From a virus (lineage: Duplodnaviria > Caudoviricetes), in the IMG/VR virus record IMGVR_UViG_3300013006_001053, positions 1 to 60,404 of that record: a stretch of DNA of 60,404 nucleotides; one strand, 5' to 3'. A program made the translations under genes and the position numbers. Positions 3,971 to 35,273 of the stretch are shown here, piece by piece (the first letter of the stretch is position 1; every line of letters starts with the position of its first letter). Under the pieces are notes generated by a model, which was not told the DNA's origin, searched no databases, and was given only the letters and a program-made list of their open reading frames with translations.

Positions 3971-3978
3971 ATATCAAG

Positions 3979-4051
3979 TACCCCTGGCAGGAATCGAACC
4001 TGCGACACATGGCTTAGAAGTCCATTGTTCTCTCCACTGAACTACAGAGGC
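3979..4051 (-). tRNA. tRNA-Arg(TCT)
   Basis: Cloverleaf GCCTCTG/CAGGGGT, anticodon loop CTTCTAA, T-loop GTTCGATTC. Confidence 0.93.
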
Positions 4052-4052
4052 G

Positions 4053-4126
4053 TACAGCAGGTAGGACTTGAACCGACGACGACCGAATTATGAGTTCGGG
4101 GCTTTAACCAACTAAGCTACTGCTGC
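4053..4126 (-). tRNA. tRNA with CAT anticodon (elongator Met or Ile2)
   Basis: GCAGCAG/CTGCTGT acceptor, CCGAA-CTCATAA-TTCGG arm, GTTCAAGTC. Lacks initiator features. One T-stem mismatch. Confidence 0.88.
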
Positions 4127-13096: not shown

Positions 13097-13504
13097 CTAT
13101 GCCACTGACATTTTGGACTGCCATAGGGAGCAGTTATCATCAAGGCGTGAGCCAAAAACACGGATGTAGTCTGCGATATCTGCTGTTTGATCTGTTAGAC
13201 ATTCTTTAACTGTGTCTACTGATATAAAGACTCTGCCATTCCATAGACCCATTTGGCCAATGTTTGTTGGTACTTCTAAGCATCCGTAAGTATCCTGCTC
13301 CCAGCCAACACCCTCTGTACAAACCAGGGCATACTTATTGTCGCCAAATACATTTTTTTCTTCAAGGGTAACGAATAGAAGATTATCTACTGTACATTCA
13401 CTAAAGTCACTACTATACTGTAGATTATAGATTCCATTAGCGATTACTGCTAACTTCTTGCCGTCAACGATTTGGCCTAAATAGCCCTTTGATCTTTCTC
13501 TCAC
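13097..13504 (-). CDS. Hypothetical protein
   Basis: GTG start after AAAGGA. Confidence 0.6.
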   Translation of the reverse strand: MRERSKGYLGQIVDGKKLAVIANGIYNLQYSSDFSECTVDNLLFVTLEEKNVFGDNKYALVCTEGVGWEQDTYGCLEVPTNIGQMGLWNGRVFISVDTVKECLTDQTADIADYIRVFGSRLDDNCSLWQSKMSVA

Positions 13505-13645
13505 TGGTGTATCCTTTGGTAGTAGGTATATATCAATTGTACCCGAACTGGGAAAAAATAGCAACTACCGTAATAAAGATTTGGGAAAAATCTCATACTT
13601 ACGTAATAAGGTTTGTAACAAAATGTGATAAAGCCGGGCCACTTG

Positions 13646-13719
13646 CGATTCCAACGGGACTTGAACCCGTAGCCTCTACCGTGACAGGGTAGCGATCTAA
13701 CCAATTGATCTATGGAATC
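13646..13719 (-). tRNA. tRNA-Asp(GTC)
   Basis: GATTCCA/TGGAATC acceptor, CTACC-CTGTCAC-GGTAG arm, GGTTCAAGTCC. Confidence 0.93.
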
Positions 13720-13722
13720 TTG

Positions 13723-13751
13723 CGAGCAGTTTTAAATCTTGCTCAGGATTT
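13723..13751 (-). ncRNA. Repeated pseudoknot element, copy 1
   Basis: AAAUC-CUGAGCAA-GAUUU-AAAAC-UGCUCG, immediately 5' of tRNA-Asp. Confidence 0.7.
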
Positions 13752-13757
13752 TTTTTG

Positions 13758-14780
13758 TTATGCTAGAGACATAACACCTTGTACAACTTTTAGCAGACGA
13801 TTTTTTTCTGCGTTGATAGCAGGGTCAAATCCGCTTGCACTTGCAAGGATAGATTCGTTAGAACCACCACGAGCAGAACGATACCAGTCAAGGCGCTCAG
13901 TTAGTGCATTGAAAGCACCCCACGCATTACCAGCAATCATTCCGTTATATTCGCCAGTGTAAATATCGTTAATCATATCTACCTTGTTTTCCCATTTCTT
14001 GCTTGAACCCTTAGCGTCTTTTTCTGGCTTAGGATAAGCAGCAAGAATGATTTTGTTAAAGTCAATGGCGCTAACTTCCTTTTCAATCATAGCCTTAGCC
14101 ATAACATCAAATTCGTCCATATAAGCATTAGCAAGACCTAAAGTCTCACGAGCAATTTGCACTTTACCATTAGCGGTTTGTGTGTGGCGAATCTTGAAAG
14201 ATTGCTTGATTCCCTTATTTTTCTTACGACCTACGCCACCAAGCGCAAGGTTAAGAGTGTTAGCGCACACAACACGAACGGGTGTTATGCTTGCTTGAAT
14301 AGCGATAGAACCATCGTGTGATGTGTTTATAAGCAAATAAGTCTTTACCTTATCACTTACACCGTTAGGGTCTAGGATTGTTTCACGCTCTAGTGCAAGC
14401 GCACCGAATACAACACGCCCACCCTTGATTGAACCAGCGGTTTCCCAACGACCCCCGCCGTCTAGGATATTATCACCAAATGAAAATAAATCTTCATTCT
14501 GCAATACGTGATAACGCTCACCAACTACGCCAAGAATATCTGTCTGGGTATTGTCGGTAGGATTTGTACGCAATACATATTGGTATGATTTGTCGCTTGT
14601 TAGGTGTGTAGGGGTTTCCAAATCCTCTAAGCGAACATTCCAGTTATCTAAACTAGCAAGAGATAGCATTTCTGCTGTTGTCTTTTCCTCGGTAAATACT
14701 GTTCCCAATCCGTGCCAAGCAGGTTCTCTGAATGACGCAAATGAGGTTTTGCCGTTTTGTGTTTCTAAATCGTGAGCCAC
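13758..14780 (-). CDS. DUF932/DUF945 (TIGR03299-like) phage/plasmid protein
   Basis: PAWHGLG, ETAGSIKGG, NTSHDGS, TPVRVVCANT, IRHT, AWGAFNALTE. Confidence 0.9.
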   Translation of the reverse strand: MAHDLETQNGKTSFASFREPAWHGLGTVFTEEKTTAEMLSLASLDNWNVRLEDLETPTHLTSDKSYQYVLRTNPTDNTQTDILGVVGERYHVLQNEDLFSFGDNILDGGGRWETAGSIKGGRVVFGALALERETILDPNGVSDKVKTYLLINTSHDGSIAIQASITPVRVVCANTLNLALGGVGRKKNKGIKQSFKIRHTQTANGKVQIARETLGLANAYMDEFDVMAKAMIEKEVSAIDFNKIILAAYPKPEKDAKGSSKKWENKVDMINDIYTGEYNGMIAGNAWGAFNALTERLDWYRSARGGSNESILASASGFDPAINAEKNRLLKVVQGVMSLA

Positions 14781-14943
14781 GATATTTTCCTTCTTTCTGT
14801 TGTTGATAATCTAATCATACACCACCCTACCGACATATGCAAATCAGGCTAGTTAGATATGGGGTAAATTGGACATTTCGTAAGCGTGTCGTAAATCATA
14901 GTGTGATCTTGGTCACGTCGGGCCGGGTTTGAAAATAAAAAAA

Positions 14944-14974
14944 TAAGCAGTTTAAATGGACGCTGCTCAGGTCC
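14944..14974 (-). ncRNA. Repeated pseudoknot element, copy 2
   Basis: GGAC-CUGAGCAGC-GUCC-AUUUAAAC-UGCUUA. Confidence 0.65.
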
Positions 14975-14990
14975 TATTAGTAGCCCCCTA

Positions 14991-15422
14991 CTAAATATCT
15001 ATTCTATCAATGCTTGATGATAGGTATCCAATATTATCTGAGTTATACTGGACGGCATCAAAATCAATATCGTTAATTGCATCCTGTGCATCCTCTTCAG
15101 TACGAGCATTAACTGTAATGGAATATGAAACTGCAACTTCAACTTCAAATTCTTTTGTTAATTCAAAGCCAACAATTTCTGCAATTGATTCTGCATCGCT
15201 TTCATCAATGGTGCCGTGCTCCAAGGCATCTAGGGTCCACTCTTGCATTGCTTCTGTAATTCTGTTACGGTCTGCAGAATCTAAATAGGAGCGCTGGGTT
15301 ATCTGTTGAACGTGCTGTTCAAGTTGAGCAATGCGCTCATCCTTGATTAAGATCTGAGACTCAAAAAATTCTTGCGATGTTACTGGTATTACTGTTGGAT
15401 ACGACGTTTTCATTTGGTCCAT
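14991..15422 (-). CDS. Hypothetical protein
   Basis: Coiled coil followed by a VNARTEEDA domain. Confidence 0.7.
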   Translation of the reverse strand: MDQMKTSYPTVIPVTSQEFFESQILIKDERIAQLEQHVQQITQRSYLDSADRNRITEAMQEWTLDALEHGTIDESDAESIAEIVGFELTKEFEVEVAVSYSITVNARTEEDAQDAINDIDFDAVQYNSDNIGYLSSSIDRIDI

Positions 15423-15427
15423 AGGGC

Positions 15428-15691
15428 TTATTCCATTTCTTTTTCTAGTTCATCGAATTCTTTGATTGTATCTACCATATCGTTCATCTGGCTTTCTGTT
15501 AAACAAACTGATGTAACTAATGTAGCAGTTAAGGCTGACAAACTTGCTGAGTATTTAAATAAGAATTGCATAAACTCATTGTCTGTCATTTCATTTCTTG
15601 CGTGGTATAAGTGCCCAGCCATATCCATAATTTCCTCATTGTGAACGGCTGACGCTGTTGCGTTTTGTATTCTTAGTGCTGTTGCTATCAT
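15428..15691 (-). CDS. Hypothetical protein
   Basis: Start MIATAL after AAGGAG and a promoter. Confidence 0.7.
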   Translation of the reverse strand: MIATALRIQNATASAVHNEEIMDMAGHLYHARNEMTDNEFMQFLFKYSASLSALTATLVTSVCLTESQMNDMVDTIKEFDELEKEME

Positions 15692-15900
15692 AGGGGTCTC
15701 CTTCTTTGTGGTGTAATATAAGTATATGTCCAAGGACTGACAAATGCAAGCGGGAATCATAAATGTCTTACATAATGGGATGTGATGTTGATCACTGCGG
15801 CCCGGCCTGCAAAAAATAAAAATGATTAGGAACGAGTTTTTATTGTGCACCTGTCAACTCTTTTCAGCAGCGGGATCCGCATCTGCCTAATCAAACTTAG

Positions 15901-15928
15901 TGAGCAGTTTAGCGACCTACTCAGGTCG
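15901..15928 (-). ncRNA. Repeated pseudoknot element, copy 3
   Basis: CGAC-CUGAGUAG-GUCG-CUAAAC-UGCUCA. Confidence 0.7.
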
Positions 15929-15976
15929 TTTGGGTTTAGGTGTCTAGACTTTGTGTGCTAACCCCCCAAACTTTAT

Positions 15977-16402
15977 TTATAGATAACGAGCAACCGCATT
16001 GTATGTGGAAGTATTTACAACTTCCTCATCTGTCATTTTGAGAATACGAATTGCGTTAGCAATTTCCTCTTTCTGACTACGATATTCGTGTGTGTGTAGT
16101 ACCTCAAACTCACGCTCAGGCTCTGATGGCATATCTTTTTCATTGGCTACAACAATATCATAGTCAATGTTTAGTGTGTTATTGTATGAGCGATATGATG
16201 TGCGGAAGTTAGTTGCTTTCTTGATGTTCTCAATAGCAAACGCCTGTATTTGCTTGCGCCATACTTCTCTAGCCTTTTCATACTTTGCTTCGTTGGCTTC
16301 TTGTGAAGTCCAATCAAGTTCTAGTTTAGCGAGTGCGCCTTCTAGTGCTTTGATTACTTTTGGTGTTGCGATTTTTACGCTAATTGCTTTTCCTCTTGAC
16401 AT
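15977..16402 (-). CDS. Hypothetical protein
   Basis: RBS AAAGGA; own promoter. Confidence 0.75.
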   Translation of the reverse strand: MSRGKAISVKIATPKVIKALEGALAKLELDWTSQEANEAKYEKAREVWRKQIQAFAIENIKKATNFRTSYRSYNNTLNIDYDIVVANEKDMPSEPEREFEVLHTHEYRSQKEEIANAIRILKMTDEEVVNTSTYNAVARYL

Positions 16403-16461
16403 AGTTTTCCTTTTCTTTGGTGGGTGTATTTATAGTATAGCGGAGGGGTCTGACATTGTGG

Positions 16462-16489
16462 TGAGCAGTTTAGTATCTTGCTCAGGATA
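16462..16489 (-). ncRNA. Repeated pseudoknot element, copy 4
   Basis: UAUC-CUGAGCAA-GAUA-CUAAAC-UGCUCA. Confidence 0.7.
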
Positions 16490-16502
16490 TTTACTTAGGC
16501 TA

Positions 16503-16664
16503 TTATGCCTTCCAAGTAGTCCAGCGTGTTGCACCTGCAACATCTAACTTAACACGAACTGTGCCGTTAGCGTTTGGCTTGATTTCTGTAATTGTGCCAG
16601 TTACCTTTGACTTCTGTGAAGTGTAAGTGTCGCCGACCTTGTATAGTGCTTGTGCTACTGTCAT
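16503..16664 (-). CDS. Small SH3-like beta protein
   Basis: MTVAQALYKVGDTYTSQKSKVTGTI...; RBS AAAGGA. Confidence 0.7.
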   Translation of the reverse strand: MTVAQALYKVGDTYTSQKSKVTGTITEIKPNANGTVRVKLDVAGATRWTTWKA

Positions 16665-16757
16665 TTTGTTTCCTTTTCTGTTGTTGGTTATATTTCTAGT
16701 ATATCCGAAAAATCTCAGAAATACAAATCTATTGGGAAATAATCTCATATTTTGAGA

Positions 16758-16928
16758 TTACTTAGAGGTCTTTACCATAGCGAAGCGGTGTGCGCCGTTT
16801 GCCAAGCGTAATGAAACTCTAGTTAGTTTAGCATTTATAGGGCTGAAGTCTGTAATGCGACCTGTAACTCCTGTTTTGCTTGTTGTGAATAAATCACCGA
16901 TTTGGTAAGTGTATCCGCCTAGGGTCAT
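16758..16928 (-). CDS. Small SH3-like beta protein, paralog of 16503
   Basis: Translated by hand: MTLGGYTYQIGDLFTTSKTGVTGRI...; own promoter and RBS. Confidence 0.7.
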   Translation of the reverse strand: MTLGGYTYQIGDLFTTSKTGVTGRITDFSPINAKLTRVSLRLANGAHRFAMVKTSK

Positions 16929-17143
16929 TGGTTTTCCTTTCGTTTTGGTGTATATAACAATTCTAGCAAAAAAATATCACAAATACAACTTTTGGTGAGG
17001 TTCTGGGGTGTGTCCTTAATCACATCTTAAATGCGTGTCGTAACTTGACAAACCAACTTTTTTGCGCCGGGCTTCCTTGATCACTGATATATAAAAAGAA
17101 TCAGTAACCAAAGAAGGACCCACCCCCACGTGTTCATTAAATA

Positions 17144-17866
17144 TTATTTCTTAGTTGCAGAAAATACAATATCTGCTTTTGAATATACGCATAGCGAGCA
17201 AGATACACAAGCGGACCCATTGCTTGAAATTAATGGAATGGCCTTAAGGTTTTCAGGGCACTTAGCACCTGGTTTTGAAGTTAACGCTTTCATATCTGCT
17301 TGACCAATAGCAAAATTCTTCGCAAGGTATGCAAGGCGAATTCCGTGATCAGTCTTTAGTTCAATACCAATAGACTTATTCTCACTATCAGTTGAATAGT
17401 ATAAGGATAGATTAGGAATATCTTTTAAAATTAGCGCTGCAGACTTAACTCGTGTGTATACCCAAAATTGAATATCAGGATGAGTATCAATTATATCTTT
17501 CCACGCATATGCATAAACATCGTTAAAAAAATCTCCGTCCCAGTGTATACGAAATAACCTAGGAGCGTTTTTCTTATTGCATTCTGCCTTGAATTCTACT
17601 ATCATTTGATCAAGAAGATCTTTCATCGTATTAGAATCAGCGTCTTTCAATAGGTCCCAATTGTGTAGGAGGCTAGCCTTTACGGAAGGGAATACCTTTT
17701 CTAACTTGCCAGCATAGCAGATACGTTCGCACACGCTAGTAGCACTAGGGCAAGAATAAGACTTGCCAGCAGGTAGGCCGAAAGTATTCGCAATCGTGGG
17801 GGTTTTCCCATTGGGTGATACCGCATTAGCAACCTTTCTATCTTTAGAACGTTTTAATTGGGTCAT
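17144..17866 (-). CDS. GP88-family protein (radical-SAM-like Cys motif)
   Basis: FGLPAG..SCPSATSVCERICYA, FRIHWDGDF, FWVYTR, C-terminal CP...CxxCxxC. Confidence 0.8.
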   Translation of the reverse strand: MTQLKRSKDRKVANAVSPNGKTPTIANTFGLPAGKSYSCPSATSVCERICYAGKLEKVFPSVKASLLHNWDLLKDADSNTMKDLLDQMIVEFKAECNKKNAPRLFRIHWDGDFFNDVYAYAWKDIIDTHPDIQFWVYTRVKSAALILKDIPNLSLYYSTDSENKSIGIELKTDHGIRLAYLAKNFAIGQADMKALTSKPGAKCPENLKAIPLISSNGSACVSCSLCVYSKADIVFSATKK

Positions 17867-17870
17867 AGAA

Positions 17871-18023
17871 TTACTCGCTCTCTTTCTTTAATTCTAGCAT
17901 TAGGGACTGACATTTCTTGCCTTTGCGAGAATAAACTTTTTTAGAAGGCACGGCTGAAGCAGCATTACTGCGGCGTAATTCCATAAGCCTGCGTAATTCC
18001 TCGGGACCCTTTGGCGTGTTCAT
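17871..18023 (-). CDS. Small basic protein (ELRRSNAA...KKVYSRK)
   Basis: Leaderless after TTGACA...TAGAAT; translated by hand. Confidence 0.55.
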   Translation of the reverse strand: MNTPKGPEELRRLMELRRSNAASAVPSKKVYSRKGKKCQSLMLELKKESE

Positions 18024-18201
18024 AAATCAATTCTAGCATTATCAGACTAAAAATGTCAAATCATAAAGCTGTGACCAATCTCACACGGCCCGGCCTTTCA
18101 ATAGTAATTAGATTTGCACTCAGAGCAAACAAAATTAAGTTTGCAATAGCAACCAATAGATACAGGTTCAGGATTTTCATAGTAGTCATCATATGAATCC
18201 A

Positions 18202-18429
18202 TTATAGATCACCCATTTCTGCGTCAGCCATACGAGTTTCCATATGGTGTGAAACTAAATCAAAAGTTGAATAAGACGGATACATAGCAGCCTCTAACTC
18301 ACAAGACCAACATAGATCAAAAACATTTAATTCTGTTTCATCACGGCAAACATTACAGTTGCCATAGTTTTCAACTGGTGAAGTTGTAGCATATAGTTCA
18401 TCATAGAACTCATCATTTTCATATCGCAT
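18202..18429 (-). CDS. Hypothetical Zn-finger protein
   Basis: CxxC..CxxC; RBS GAAAGG. Confidence 0.6.
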   Translation of the reverse strand: MRYENDEFYDELYATTSPVENYGNCNVCRDETELNVFDLCWSCELEAAMYPSYSTFDLVSHHMETRMADAEMGDL

Positions 18430-18549
18430 TTGGCACGACCTTTCGTTTAGATTATTCTAATCCTAGCAGACTGAACTGACAAATACAAGTTCTGGGGGAT
18501 TTAAACACGGTACGTAACTGTGATCTCTGCCACAGGCGGCCCGGCCCCG

Positions 18550-18789
18550 CTATTGCTCGTCTATAAAGACGTAGAGTTTAAACATATCCTCAAAGGTGCA
18601 AGCAGTTTCATATGTTTCACCAAAATCATTACGGTGTGTAACTATATAGTTATCACCTGTTGCATCATCTACAACGGACAACACTTCAACAATGTCATCA
18701 TCAACATTAATTAAATCGCCAACCATAAGTTGAGCGGGAGTTAATAAGTCAGCGTATACAAATTTCATAGTCTCCATTGTAGCAGTCAT
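18550..18789 (-). CDS. Hypothetical protein
   Basis: RBS GGAGG. Confidence 0.65.
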   Translation of the reverse strand: MTATMETMKFVYADLLTPAQLMVGDLINVDDDIVEVLSVVDDATGDNYIVTHRNDFGETYETACTFEDMFKLYVFIDEQ

Positions 18790-18913
18790 TTTACTTCCTC
18801 CACTATTACATCGTCATAGCCCATCTCTATCATCTCTTGCGCCCAATATTCTGCATCTCGTCTAGTAAGGTAGTTAGAATTTAATTCGCTTCCGCCAACC
18901 CATAGGGAGTACA

Positions 18914-19198
18914 TTAGTCCTCCCAATCAGGTAGCCAGAATGATAAGTGGTGTTGGTCTACGATAGCCCTTGCAGGTGCTTGCGTTGAGCCACGATATAA
19001 AATCTGAAAGTCTCCAACCATAGGCATATCAATCATTCGATCATAGTCCTCATCATAGTATGCATCTATTGCCTCTATGCAAGGTTGCACCATCTCTGCG
19101 GGTACTGGAGGATAGTGATTACCTTTAAGGTGATAAAGTAATTGTGTTTCTAAGTCTAGTACTGAGTCTGTTAGTCCTATTGCTGTTACTGATCCCAT
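18914..19198 (-). CDS. Hypothetical protein
   Basis: HLxGNHYPPVP motif. Confidence 0.65.
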   Translation of the reverse strand: MGSVTAIGLTDSVLDLETQLLYHLKGNHYPPVPAEMVQPCIEAIDAYYDEDYDRMIDMPMVGDFQILYRGSTQAPARAIVDQHHLSFWLPDWED

Positions 19199-19330
19199 AT
19201 TACTTATAGTCCCAATCTGCGATTACTCCGTCAATGGCATCTGCCATATCTGCTTCAAATAATTCTAACTCATCTGCTGTTAGTTTGCTCATAACTGTTT
19301 CGATCTTTTCGATAAACTCTGCACTATACA

Positions 19331-19540
19331 TTACTTAACCGTTACCTCTCCGTTGCGATAAAATGTCTTAGTGTACATCTTACCTGTTGGGTCTGACAAG
19401 TTATAGGTTGCGTATTCTTTAGCATCACCAAAGTCCACACACTTAGTCCAAGCATCTACCGCTTCCATTAAGTCTGCGGTACGCATAGTAAAATAAAGCA
19501 CTCCGTCATATGAGGCAGTTAGTGAGTAGTTATATTCCAT
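19331..19540 (-). CDS. Hypothetical protein
   Basis: RBS and promoter upstream. Confidence 0.65.
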   Translation of the reverse strand: MEYNYSLTASYDGVLYFTMRTADLMEAVDAWTKCVDFGDAKEYATYNLSDPTGKMYTKTFYRNGEVTVK

Positions 19541-19794
19541 TAGTTTCCTTCTTTCTTTACAATAATAGTAGCAGAGAGGGCTGACAAGGCTTCTGCCTTG
19601 CTTGCTTCACGTTGGGCCTTGACGTGAGCCTTAAATTCATCTAGGTTCATAGACTTCCTTCTTTCTTGAGTTGATATAAATATCCTATCATCTATTACCG
19701 ACAAATACTAATCCATAAGGGGGTTCAGGGGTGTGTTTATAATCACACGTAAAGGGTTGTGGATAAACTGTGGACGACACGCCGGGCCAAACTT

Positions 19795-19822
19795 TGAGCA
19801 GTTTTTATTCTTGCTCAGGAAT
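19795..19822 (-). ncRNA. Repeated pseudoknot element, copy 5
   Basis: AUUC-CUGAGCAA-GAAU-AAAAAC-UGCUCA. Confidence 0.7.
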
Positions 19823-19829
19823 TATTTAT

Positions 19830-20012
19830 TTAGTAAACGCTTATGTTGCAGGCTTCAAAAAATTTATCTGCTTTGAAATTTTTATTATCCTCTGCAAACA
19901 TTGCAGCAAAGTCATCAACAAGATCGTGATAAGTAAACTCATCACCGATCAAATCTTTATAAGATGAAAGAATATCTGAAACAGCAACATAGTCTTTTCT
20001 GCTCATCGGCAT
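19830..20012 (-). CDS. Hypothetical protein (MSRKDY...DNxxFxxxKF family)
   Basis: Recurrent phage early-protein pattern. Confidence 0.7.
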   Translation of the reverse strand: MPMSRKDYVAVSDILSSYKDLIGDEFTYHDLVDDFAAMFAEDNKNFKADKFFEACNISVY

Positions 20013-33050: not shown

Positions 33051-35273
33051 ATGGCAACAAGAATGCAACAGCGCAGAGGTACCGCTGCTCAGTGGACCGC
33101 TGCAGATCCAGTTTTAAATGCTGGCGAAATTGGGTTTGAAAGCGATACAGGCAAGTTTAAGATCGGTGATGGCACAAACCATTGGGACGACCTTAACTAC
33201 TTCTTAGATTCAGTTGACCAAGGTGGAAGCATTACCGACTATGTTCCATTAACACAAAAGGATGCTGCTAGTGGCGTTGCATCCCTTGATTCAAATAAGA
33301 ACGTCTATGTTCCTGGATCATCTATTATTATTGAAGGTTCAACAGATAACACAAATGAAACAACACTAACTGTTACAAATCCAACAGCAGACCGTACAAT
33401 TACTTTTCCAGACGCAACTGGAACAGTGGTCTTAGCCGACGGTAGCGGAAATGTTACAGTCTCAGGAGACTTAACTGTAAGTGGTACAACTACTACTATT
33501 AATAGCACAACGATCAATGCTACAACAGGAATTGTTTTTGAAGGTGCTACAGCAGATGCCCATGAAACCACTTTAACAATTACAGATCCAACAGCAGATA
33601 GAACTGTAACATTTCAAGATGCAACAGGAACAGTAGTTCTTAGAGATTCAACAGATACTCTAACAAACAAGTCAATTTCACTTGGTTCAAACACAGTTAC
33701 ATCAACTCTTGCTCAGTTAAATACAGCAATTAGCGATGCAGATGTAGCCACAATTGCTGGAACAGAAACACTTACAAACAAAACACTTACAAGTCCAGTA
33801 GTTTCAGGTCTTACAATTTCAGATGCTTCAATAGTAATTGAAGGCGCAACTGCAAATGAATTTGAAACAACAATTACTTTTACAGACCCAACGGCTGATA
33901 GAACAATTACATTTCCAGATTCTACAGGTACAGTAGCATTAACAACTGACATAACTGCTTCAAACATTGCAAATGATTCAATAACAGCAGTAAAACTTGC
34001 AGGAGATTCAGTTACAACTTCAAAAATTCAAAATTTAGCAGTTGAAACAGGAAAGATTAATGATCTTGCAGTCACTACAGGAAAAATTGCAGAGGGTGCA
34101 GTAACATCAGCCAAGATTGCAAATGATACAATTGTAGATGCAGACATTAACGCTTCAGCAGCAATTGCATTGTCTAAGTTAGCAACAGATCCACTTGCTC
34201 GTGCAAACCACACAGGCTCACAAACAGCCTCAACGATTTCAGATTTTAATGAAGCAGCACAAGATGCAGTAGGAGGAATTCTAGGTTCTGGTCTTACATA
34301 TACAGATGCTTCAAATACAATTACTGTAGATTCCACAGTTGTCCAATTAAGAGTTACAAACGTAACTGACACAGAAATTGGATACCTTGATGGAGTTACA
34401 TCAGCAGTTCAAACTCAAATGGATGCTAAGGCTCCACTTGCCTCACCAACATTTACTGGTACAGTATCTGCAGCAGCACTTACTCTTTCTGGAGATTTAA
34501 CCGTAAACGGAACAACTACAACAATTAATTCAACTACTCTTTCAGTAGATGATAAAAATGTTGTTCTTGGTGATGTTGCTACGCCTTCCGATGCAACAGC
34601 AGATGGTGGCGGTATAACACTAAAGGGCGCAACAGATAAAACCTTTAACTGGGTAGACGCTACAGATGCCTGGACTTCATCAGAGCACCTAAATCTCGCT
34701 TCAGGAAAGTCTCTATATTTAAACGGTACTCTATTAAAAGATGCTACAGAAACTTTAACTAATAAGACTTTAACTAGCCCAACACTCACAACCCCTGCTC
34801 TTGGAACCCCAGCATCGGGTGTGCTTACCAATACAACGGGTTTGCCTATCTCAACAGGCGTTTCAGGTTTAGGAACTGGTATTGCTACATTCCTGGCTAC
34901 TCCATCATCTGCTAATTTTACAGCAGCAATTACAGATGAAATTGGTACTGGTAACGTCATTCTTTCAGACTTGGCTACAAGTGCTCAAAATGCTTCTTAT
35001 ACATTAGTGTTAGCAGATAAAGGCAAGTTAGTAGAAATGTCCAACGCTTCTGCTAACAACCTTACAGTTCCTCTTAATTCATCAGTAGCCTACCCAGTTG
35101 GTTCACAGATCAATATTCTTCAAACTGGTGCTGGTCAAACAACCGTAGTTGCTACTGGTGGCGTGACCATCAACGCCACTCCTGGCTTAAAGTTACGAAC
35201 ACAATGGTCATCTGCAACGTTGATCAAACGTGCAACAGATACTTGGGTTTTGCTTGGTGACTTGGTAGCATAA
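33051..35273 (+). CDS. Tail fibre with Mtd-N/hyaluronidase-type N-terminal domain
   Basis: [11 protein letters not shown]...[17 protein letters not shown]; same repeats as 30678; W-VLLGDL end. Confidence 0.8.

Follow-up and report, generated by a model that had tools for sequence, protein, structure and literature searches.

A compact, covarying RNA pseudoknot that follows stop codons in diverse phages, with a possible role at the 3' ends of cistrons

The -1 frameshift pseudoknots of luteoviruses (those of beet western yellows virus, BWYV; pea enation mosaic virus 1, PEMV-1; and sugarcane yellow leaf virus, ScYLV) have a short C-containing loop 1, an extruded junction base, an A-rich loop 3 and a stem 1 of about 5 base pairs (bp), and they start about 5-8 nucleotides (nt) past the codon held by the ribosome. 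The repetitive extragenic palindromic (REP) elements of malE-malF, the hairpins of the puf operon and terminator hairpins lie in the sense orientation after stop codons or between cistrons, where they are proposed to stop 3'->5' exonucleases and so prolong the life of the upstream segment. The exoribonuclease-resistant RNAs (xrRNAs) of flaviviruses and plant viruses are small, protein-independent folds found after a stop codon, in which a hairpin loop forms a pseudoknot with the 3' tail and which are thought to halt an exonuclease. A different RNA pseudoknot of about 28-33 nt is present five times on the minus strand of the IMG/VR virus record IMGVR_UViG_3300013006_001053 (hereafter the window, meaning the whole stretch of 60,404 bases that was analysed) and recurs in phages of many other hosts. 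By comparison of descriptions, its architecture seems closest to the luteovirus frameshift pseudoknots, and the function proposed for it below would be closest to that of the REP and terminator-type 3' stabilisers and the viral xrRNAs.

The phage knot shares with the luteovirus knots its compact H-type fold, the same layout of loop 1, junction and loop 3, a stem 1 of roughly 5 bp and a start about 5-8 nt past the codon in the ribosome. It differs from them in having a stop codon upstream and not a slippery heptamer, in the lack of an overlapping frame, in a stem 2 of 5 bp compared with 3, and in being carried by DNA phages. REP, puf and terminator elements are plain hairpins, either free in sequence (terminators) or near-identical within a genome (REP), whereas the phage element is a pseudoknot with an invariant core across unrelated phages and fully variable stems. 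Known xrRNAs block 5'->3' enzymes by means of a ring around their own 5' end and belong to eukaryotic RNA viruses; no xrRNA family of Rfam matches the phage knot.

The window is estimated to be 56% complete and has about 38% G+C. Its genes include those for a portal, a prohead protease and a class II ribonucleotide reductase; the nearest named relatives are Streptomyces phages of the NootNoot group, with about 52% protein identity, and no near-identical phage record was found for it. A preliminary description, made from the letters of the window, had proposed five minus-strand copies of a pseudoknot in which stem 1 changes yet stays paired, G-U changes are tolerated between the loop and the tail, each copy lies about 5-50 nt after a stop codon and one adjoins a tRNA-Asp. 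These particulars were recovered in full. The pattern CTGAGYAN{3,14}AACTGCTY has 5 matches in the window, all on the minus strand (Table 1), compared with 0 in 100 dinucleotide-preserving shuffles and 0 for the backwards control in the window. All five stem-1 pairings read from the sequence are as first quoted, wobbles are present in copies 3, 4 and 5, and the distance to the stop codon, counted from the last base of the stem-1 5' strand, runs from 10 to 51 nt. The copies, which differ in their stems, fall within 6 kb of the window at distances of 561-3333 nt from each other. A search of the 60,404 bases with the covariance models R1 and R2, filters off, gave no sixth copy (next scores 13.1 and 12.1 bits), and the first 20 kb of NootNoot had no copy in a covariance-model search (top score 6.3 bits). 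Elsewhere in the window, a tRNA-Arg (TCT) and a tRNA-Met (CAT) abut at 3978-4126 (minus strand), with no pseudoknot before them according to R1 and R2.

Table 1. Pseudoknot copies and the adjoining tRNA in the window (gaps run from the stop codon to the last base of the stem-1 5' strand)
Feature	Coordinates	Strand	Pattern match	Score	Structure	Surroundings
Pseudoknot copy 1	19795-19822	minus	19796-19818	R1 45.3 bits, R2 38.2 bits	Stem 1 AUUC/GAAU (19822-19819 with 19810-19807); loop C 19818; UGAGCA 19817-19812; junction A; loop AAAAAC; UGCUCA 19800-19795	Upstream TAA ends 19830; gap 10 nt
Pseudoknot copy 2	16462-16489	minus	16463-16485	R1 46.9 bits, R2 37.8 bits	Stem 1 UAUC/GAUA; UGAGCA/UGCUCA; loop CUAAAC	Upstream TAA ends 16503; gap 16 nt; downstream gene begins at 16402
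Pseudoknot copy 3	15901-15928	minus	15902-15924	R1 44.7 bits, R2 39.8 bits	Stem 1 CGAC/GUCG; UGAGUA/UGCUCA with U.G wobble; loop CUAAAC	Upstream stop ends 15977; gap 51 nt
Pseudoknot copy 4 (variant)	14944-14974	minus	14945-14970	R1 19.4 bits, R2 15.9 bits	Stem 1 GGAC/GUCC; 2-nt junction GC; longer loop AUUUAAAC; UGAGCA/UGCUUA with G.U wobble	Upstream TAG ends 14991; gap 19 nt; U-run (UUUUUUUAUUUU) comes next
Pseudoknot copy 5	13723-13751	minus	13724-13746	R1 46.0 bits, R2 38.1 bits	Stem 1 AAAUC/GAUUU; UGAGCA/UGCUCG with U.G wobble at the outermost position; loop AAAAC	Gap 10 nt from the stop of a 340-aa DUF932-like gene (label resting on a relative's protein); ends at 13723, 3 nt before the tRNA
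tRNA-Asp (GTC)	13645-13719	minus		Rfam 70.2 bits	ARAGORN prediction	Starts 3 nt past copy 5

The element has the two marks of an H-type pseudoknot, a hairpin loop that pairs with the 3' tail and compensatory change in both helices. Its consensus is N2-3-S-W-C / C-Y / R-R-N-Y-A / N / G-W-S-N2-3 / (N)AAAC / U-R-N-Y-Y / A, in which stem 1 has 3-5 bp with an almost invariant C-G closing pair, loop 1 has 2 nt (C-Y), stem 2 has 5 bp with an almost invariant A-U pair on the junction side, and the last loop, N(N)AAAC, has an invariant AAAC ending. The junction is a single variable base (U in 455, A in 285, C in 92 and G in 24 of 856 copies); descriptor counts and the stem-1 alignment come from pattern-selected DNA, and frequencies at positions 10, 14, 16 and 32 are not population estimates. 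The distance from G17 to AAAC is 5 nt and constant in most copies, and no conservation was seen beyond position 32. About 10 positions are almost invariant, beside stems that covary. In the proposed fold, the C-Y loop would cross the deep groove of stem 2 and the AAAC loop would run along stem 1.

Covariation in stem 1 was scored at 0.339 over 150 sequences, compared with 0.124 when shuffled; none of 500 shuffles reached 0.339, and slid partners scored 0.041-0.105. Pair 8-17 is C-G in 146 of the 150 sequences. Pairs 6-19 (G-C 76, A-U 33, C-G 21, U-A 16, unpaired 4) and 7-18 (U-A 74, A-U 57, C-G 12, other 7) are each paired in 146, with 4 and 5 pair types, and the outer pairs 5-20 and 4-21 are formed in 109 and 51. 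Because the first pattern had fixed the letters of stem 2, this helix was examined by IMG/VR scans that required a non-consensus base on one side, while the partner could be any base. Among the matches listed, copies without G at position 11 have A-U (87), C-G (6) or U-A (4), with 19 of 116 unpaired; those without A at position 12 have a 12-30 pair of G-C (99) or G.U (7 of 106); those without G at position 13 have A-U (81), U-A (7), C-G (6) or A.C (2 of 96); and those without G at position 28 have U-A (70), C.A (26), U.U (5) or U.C (1 of 102). Stem 1 is kept in 115/116, 104/106, 93/96 and 100/102 of these copies, respectively. Secondary copies in the fetched loci have a multiply compensated stem 2, such as UGGACA/UGUCCA and UAGGUA/UGCCUA. 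Position 15 is hardly ever changed: only 13 loci in all of IMG/VR lack A there, about the chance level, and five of them keep stem 1 (G-C 3, C-G 1, G.U 1). Copies that lack U at position 10 mostly have C there, with A kept at position 32 (C.A 56, C.C 15, C.U 11 and C-G 6 of 97 among the matches listed). Pairing between positions 10 and 32 is therefore not supported, so that stem 2 has five pairs and loop 1 is C-Y.

Both helices are under selection, as a fold at the RNA level. The preliminary description of a selected, compact H-type pseudoknot is borne out by the covariation of both stems in IMG/VR copies. Its pairing of the loop UGAG(C/U)A with the tail UGCU(C/U)(A/G) is correct as to complementarity, but has to be shortened from six pairs to five, the outermost U10-R32 being unsupported. 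The strand asymmetry of wobble pairs was considered as an argument for RNA over single-stranded DNA and set aside, as the counts (G.U 7, A.C 6, C.A 26) gave no clear argument. A minor class of knots was also noted, in which AAAAG-GCUC replaces AAACU-GCUC (7 cases: L018, two copies in L057, L087, L100, L117 and L209). Positions 26 and 27 switch together in this class (CU to AG) with position 15 still A, and this joint change hints at a tertiary contact at the helix junction.

The knot is widespread. Seven of the eight counts from scans of whole collections are lower bounds, and the true number of copies is larger. The pattern CTGAGYAN{3,14}AACTGCTY has at least 118 loci in IMG/VR; among 152 matches listed, the five of the window included, stem 1 has at least 4 contiguous pairs in 107, 3 in 28 and fewer in 17. 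A stricter pattern has at least 118 loci in a collection of one genome per prokaryotic species, and 99 of the 122 matches listed have at least 3 stem-1 pairs. The titles of the prokaryotic records among these matches name Saccharibacteria, Bacteroidota, Bacillota, Actinomycetes, Alphaproteobacteria, Cyanobacteria and two Methanobrevibacter bins, although many of the carriers are metagenome bins whose host labels are only as good as the binning. Named phages, taken from two BLAST searches with 34-nt copies (50 and 38 records), include Roseobacter phage SIO1, Lentibacter phages, the Arthrobacter Amigo group, Mycobacterium phage Labelle, Paracoccus phage ParMal1, Lactobacillus phages phig1e, phiAQ113 and Lj965, Staphylococcus phage StB12, Streptococcus Javan phages, Clostridium phage phiCT19406B, thermophilic phage D6E, Synechococcus phages S-H35 and S-RIM4, and the crAss-like phage cr7_1. 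A descriptor consisting of C8, C9, G17, AAAC, six stem-2 pairs and two further stem-1 pairs matched 608 times in 10.35 Mb of fetched DNA, compared with 2 times on the reversed sequences, and a refined descriptor (5-bp stem 2, Y at position 10) gave 856 distinct copies in the fetched DNA. Model R2 matched 1 of 151 genomes in the class of a Pseudomonas genome and 3 of 151 in the class of a Ligilactobacillus genome, the centre genome included (46 candidates scored per genome), a survey too sparse to call any host group knot-free. The idea that the knot tracks hosts bearing RNase J was dropped.

The placement of the knot is tied to the upstream gene. Only 6 of 135 copies lie inside an open reading frame (ORF) of at least 50 aa on the same strand, and all 12 knots of named phages lie between annotated genes of their own strand. 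For 496 out of 567 distinct copies, an open frame ends no more than 150 nt upstream. Measured from its stop codon to C8, 15 of these copies have a gap of 0-6 nt, 9 a gap of 7 nt, 84 a gap of 8 nt and 66 a gap of 9 nt; a declining tail follows, with 106 copies beyond 40 nt. The modal start of stem 1 is therefore about 5-6 nt past the stop, which is roughly where mRNA enters a ribosome that has the stop codon in its A site. This pile-up at a hard lower limit says that the knot stays outside the reach of the terminating ribosome, yet as close to it as is allowed. In long spacers (at least 120 nt, n=183), 69 knots hug the stop (within 12 nt), 15 hug the next start (within 39 nt) and 99 do neither; since the stop window spans only some 5 nt, compared with some 25 nt for the start window, these numbers indicate a pull toward the upstream gene. 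The 5' end of a tRNA lies 2-30 nt downstream of 38 of the 856 copies, at a gap of 2-12 nt in 36 and with ten tRNA identities, while a tRNA lies just upstream of 7; as a baseline, a tRNA follows 78 of 12,700 long open frames. In phage Amigo, the gene of the single-stranded DNA-binding protein (SSB) is followed by the knot and, after 2 nt, by a tRNA-Gly, and the order gene, pseudoknot, tRNA found at copy 5 of the window is seen again in both related and unrelated contigs. The knot is thus tied to the end of the upstream ORF and keeps out of the way of the terminating ribosome; it often lies between cistrons, and often directly against a tRNA.

The sharp onset of the distances places the knot at the mRNA entrance of a terminating ribosome, and 38 of 856 copies adjoin the cleavage site of RNase P. 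These facts could mean that the knot is a recognition site, whether for the terminating ribosome (as insulation, or to block post-termination scanning), for RNase P or another endonuclease, or for an RNA-binding regulator. About 10 near-invariant positions beside covarying stems are typical of a specific interface, and only a universal partner, such as the ribosome or RNase P, would suit a host range that includes contigs labelled Methanobrevibacter. However, 106 of 496 copies stand over 40 nt from the stop, so the knot need not touch the terminating ribosome, and it lacks the T-loop/D-loop elbow that RNase P recognises. A shared phage-encoded protein seems unlikely among unrelated and small carriers (SIO1 has 39.9 kb). 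The upstream genes are diverse as well: 165 ORFs fall into 103 clusters, and 21 Pfam families (DUF932, ArdA, DUF3768, SSB, Hsp20 and capsid proteins included) each match one of the 103 cluster representatives. A link of the knot to a gene family was rejected, as no Pfam family matches more than one upstream cluster. The leader pseudoknot of T4-type gene 32 is likewise a phage H-type knot with a minimal loop 1 in an untranslated mRNA segment; it differs in being a single site upstream of an ssb-type gene, where it nucleates the binding of that gene's own protein, whereas the present element follows many unrelated genes and in Amigo is downstream of the SSB gene. A passage of PMC10690425 mentions the gene 32 pseudoknot. 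On balance, recognition by a partner is judged improbable.

The placement statistics favour a role at the 3' end of the upstream cistron, and among the functions raised in the preliminary description (exonuclease block, processing signal, protein-binding site, ligand sensor) an exonuclease block fits best. The preferred reading, a tentative one with less than an even chance, is that the fold serves as a barrier, defining the upstream cistron's 3' end or protecting it. It would act in cis within phage mRNAs, in the sense orientation, in 3' untranslated or intercistronic RNA. Stem 1 would lie at or past the front edge of a ribosome paused at the upstream stop, so that upstream translation need not unfold the knot. 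The mRNA would be ended downstream by RNase P at an adjoining tRNA, by an endonuclease in the spacer or by termination at a U-run, and 3'->5' exonucleases would trim it back to the knot and stall there. Because the knot would be flush with the ribosome-covered frame, little single-stranded RNA would remain open to endonucleases or available for an exonuclease to load. The conserved loop and junction bases would serve the tertiary fold (base triples) and not a partner, so the same core could work across very different hosts. Support may be seen in the stop-hugging within long spacers, in the 2-12 nt tail that RNase P would leave, and in the sigma-70-like promoters that lie downstream of knots in the window, where no canonical terminator was found on the knot strand. 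A tail of 2-12 nt is too short for a 3' exonuclease to load.

A number of observations weigh against a barrier at the 3' end. The strands of the flanking genes are symmetric (downstream 402 same and 72 opposite, upstream 401 and 71), without an excess at convergent gene ends. Of 412 copies, 155 are followed after 15-39 nt by a start codon that has a Shine-Dalgarno-like motif, so many knots are intercistronic, within operons. At least 5 U occur in the next 8 nt after 206 of 844 copies (in an earlier set, after 42 of 220, compared with 4 and 8 at control offsets), but the copies with a U-run are no farther from the next start (within 39 nt in 56 of 164, compared with 179 of 460 others) and the U-runs are thus no clear terminator mark. 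SIO1, StB12, phig1e and Amigo have one copy each, which looks site-specific and unlike general punctuation. The strongly conserved core is unexplained by a 3' barrier alone, because a plain hairpin would also block exonucleases. In the Firmicutes phages StB12, phig1e and Javan271 and in D6E the knot follows the portal or minor-head block and precedes the scaffold and major capsid genes, which have to be expressed more strongly than the portal gene before them; two Lactobacillaceae genomes have the same layout of portal, knot and scaffold/capsid. In 14 prophage-like copies, a terminator-like hairpin with UUUAUUUUG separates the knot from the stop codon upstream, and the gene downstream is of scaffold type. 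A role for the downstream RNA would fit both facts better. The full order in these loci (L487, L496, L497, L516, L517, L523, L524, L533, L540, L556, L566, L578, L579 and L600) is terminator-like hairpin, UUUAUUUUG, knot, further hairpin and scaffold-type gene. This class is the strongest hint that the knot can also serve the downstream message.

The same loci suggest an alternative, namely that the knot is a barrier to 5'->3' machines, chiefly RNase J, and, when decay or cleavage upstream has left it at the 5' end of the downstream RNA, stabilises the downstream cistrons as a prokaryotic counterpart of the xrRNAs. It would account for knots directly before scaffold and major capsid genes, for those downstream of a terminator-like hairpin and for the 155 close to a start codon, and it draws on the likeness to luteovirus frameshift knots, which resist unwinding from their 5' side. 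Still, knots in long spacers hug the stop and not the start, and the promoter-like sites of the window lie between the knots and the next genes, so that the primary transcripts of those genes would lack the knot. Nor does this explanation give a reason for the 2-12 nt spacing to tRNAs, and an H-type knot, unlike the known xrRNAs, does not encircle its own 5' end. It is considered unlikely.

In the other annotated phages, the knot follows the ribonucleotide reductase gene and precedes PhoH (SIO1 and Lentibacter phage ICBM2), follows a hypothetical gene with a tRNA-Gln further on (Labelle), or lies between small or replication genes (ParMal1, S-H35, cr7_1 and phiCT19406B).

The preliminary description could not place the knot in a known family, and this is confirmed by Rfam 15, which has no match at any knot. 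In the window at gathering scores it finds only 3 tRNAs; in 13500-20000 at E<=10 it gives 6 matches, none of them on a knot; and in the 12 knot loci of named phages (44,333 bases) at E<=5 it finds only 3 tRNAs. No published description was found in the full-text literature, whether by the letters of the motif or by topic; passages of 2026 preprints and of a 2023 catalogue do not mention the motif, and their supplementary tables may list it. A tandem array of about 36-nt repeats, as in ToxI-like type III toxin-antitoxin systems, is not formed by the knots, although toxin genes were not searched for. It appears that an RNA of about 30 nt with two covarying helices and an invariant core has escaped the RNA family catalogue, and this cis-acting structured mRNA element has a fair chance of being a new functional class.

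An invariant core with covarying stems and a host breadth that autonomy from host factors would explain are also what might be expected of a very small self-cleaving ribozyme, cutting polycistronic phage RNA at or beside itself. At 28-33 nt and two short helices, the knot would be smaller than any natural self-cleaving class known to us, which counts against this idea, and no ribozyme family of Rfam 15 matches it. The pistol ribozyme (RF02679) offers a comparison: pistol RNAs are reported near phage genes (PMC4604425), and the knot resembles them in its spread over unrelated phages at intergenic sense sites and in its short P1 hairpin, the loop of which takes part in a pseudoknot beyond an A-rich linker. 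Pistol also needs P2, P3 and a cleavage junction after the pseudoknot strand. In the phage knot, the pseudoknot strand directly follows AAAC, leaving no room for a P2 strand or for P3, and nothing is conserved beyond it. Self-cleavage is accordingly rated a slim chance.

The preQ1-I riboswitch (RF00522) is another H-type pseudoknot of about 34 nt whose hairpin loop pairs with a tail after an A-rich stretch. A small-ligand aptamer of this type might be considered for the phage knot, given the common topology, A-rich 3' loop and conserved junction bases, and the U-run that follows 24% of the copies could be a terminator read-out. However, preQ1-I has a loop of 4-6 nt with a ligand-pairing C between P2 and P1, where the phage knot has one variable base, and no preQ1 or other riboswitch matched at E<=10. 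The knot does not stand in the 5' leader of queuosine-related genes: the 103 upstream gene clusters are unrelated, and the downstream genes annotated in named phages are PhoH, scaffold, primase, an ATPase or a tRNA. The ribosome-binding site and any expression platform are outside the knot, its placement follows the upstream stop and not a regulated downstream gene, and five copies stand within 6 kb of the window among genes unrelated to each other. The variable junction base and the lack of an expression platform would thus count against the ligand sensor among the functions first proposed, and it is the least probable explanation considered.

The modal spacer of 5-6 nt between stop and stem equals that of recoding knots, and a stimulator of readthrough or frameshifting was therefore considered, together with a site acting at the DNA level (a single-stranded DNA hairpin serving as promoter, nick or recombination boundary of cassettes). 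The fixed short spacer of recoding knots is not seen, gaps of 8 and 9 nt both being common and leaving no fixed frame, and the tail beyond 40 nt sets the phage knot apart from the luteovirus knots as well; slippery sites were not searched for. Several stop codons precede copy 2 of the window, which also argues against recoding. Recognition of double-stranded DNA cannot explain two interleaved covarying helices, and the orientation is tied to the coding strand and the stop codon. The DNA-level idea draws on RNA-library contigs of relatives that join blocks of genes at knots, such as 13712 to 19795 (one contig, depth 2.3), as if at module boundaries. Either kind of function is rated very improbable.

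The two RNA-library runs in question contain only 5% of the sampled words of the window; their contigs are from relatives at 85-99% identity and, being assembled, cannot show RNA ends or strand. Besides the join just mentioned, contigs of these runs (X23 and X24) join at knot edges from 16491 to 15974 and from 16929 to 16462 (all single low-depth contigs, 85% likeness), which suggests that relatives gain and lose the gene cassettes lying between knots. The ends of contigs near 16503 and 16724 are probably due to junctions that vary between strains. The paper on phage Patience contains no transcript data.

Cultured phages known for a long time, such as SIO1, phig1e and the Amigo cluster, are among the carriers of the knot. 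Were the knot a mechanical exonuclease barrier, it would reveal how phages give the segments of one transcript different lifetimes, would explain the protection of mRNAs that end at a tRNA, and would offer a compact, host-independent insulator or stabiliser for synthetic operons. The abrupt minimum in the distance between stop and knot provides a natural gauge of the reach of the terminating ribosome on mRNA. Should the knot instead bind a universal partner or cleave itself, it would be a new class of functional RNA. A bolder version of the barrier, in which the knot is an autonomous nuclease-blocking class, a counterpart of the xrRNAs in prokaryotic viruses that serves without a specific partner as universal mRNA punctuation in phages of bacteria and perhaps archaea, is doubtful; bolder still would be the smallest natural self-cleaving ribozyme.

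Two further features of the window were noted. A second intergenic repeat occurs on its minus strand at 13640, 15807, 17072, 18095, 18546, 19788, 21015 and 21988, with a G+C-rich core (GCCCGGC / GGCCGGGCC) in a genome of 38% G+C. It often precedes a GTGA...TCAC inverted repeat, followed by a sigma-70-like promoter (TTGTATTTG ... TGCTAGAAT), and in the early region it may serve as a module of operator or terminator type. On the plus strand, an ORF of 740 aa (33051-35270) has an N-terminus that matches Mtd_N, the domain of the major tropism determinant (E 4.4e-14); proteins of this kind are the usual targets of diversity-generating retroelements.

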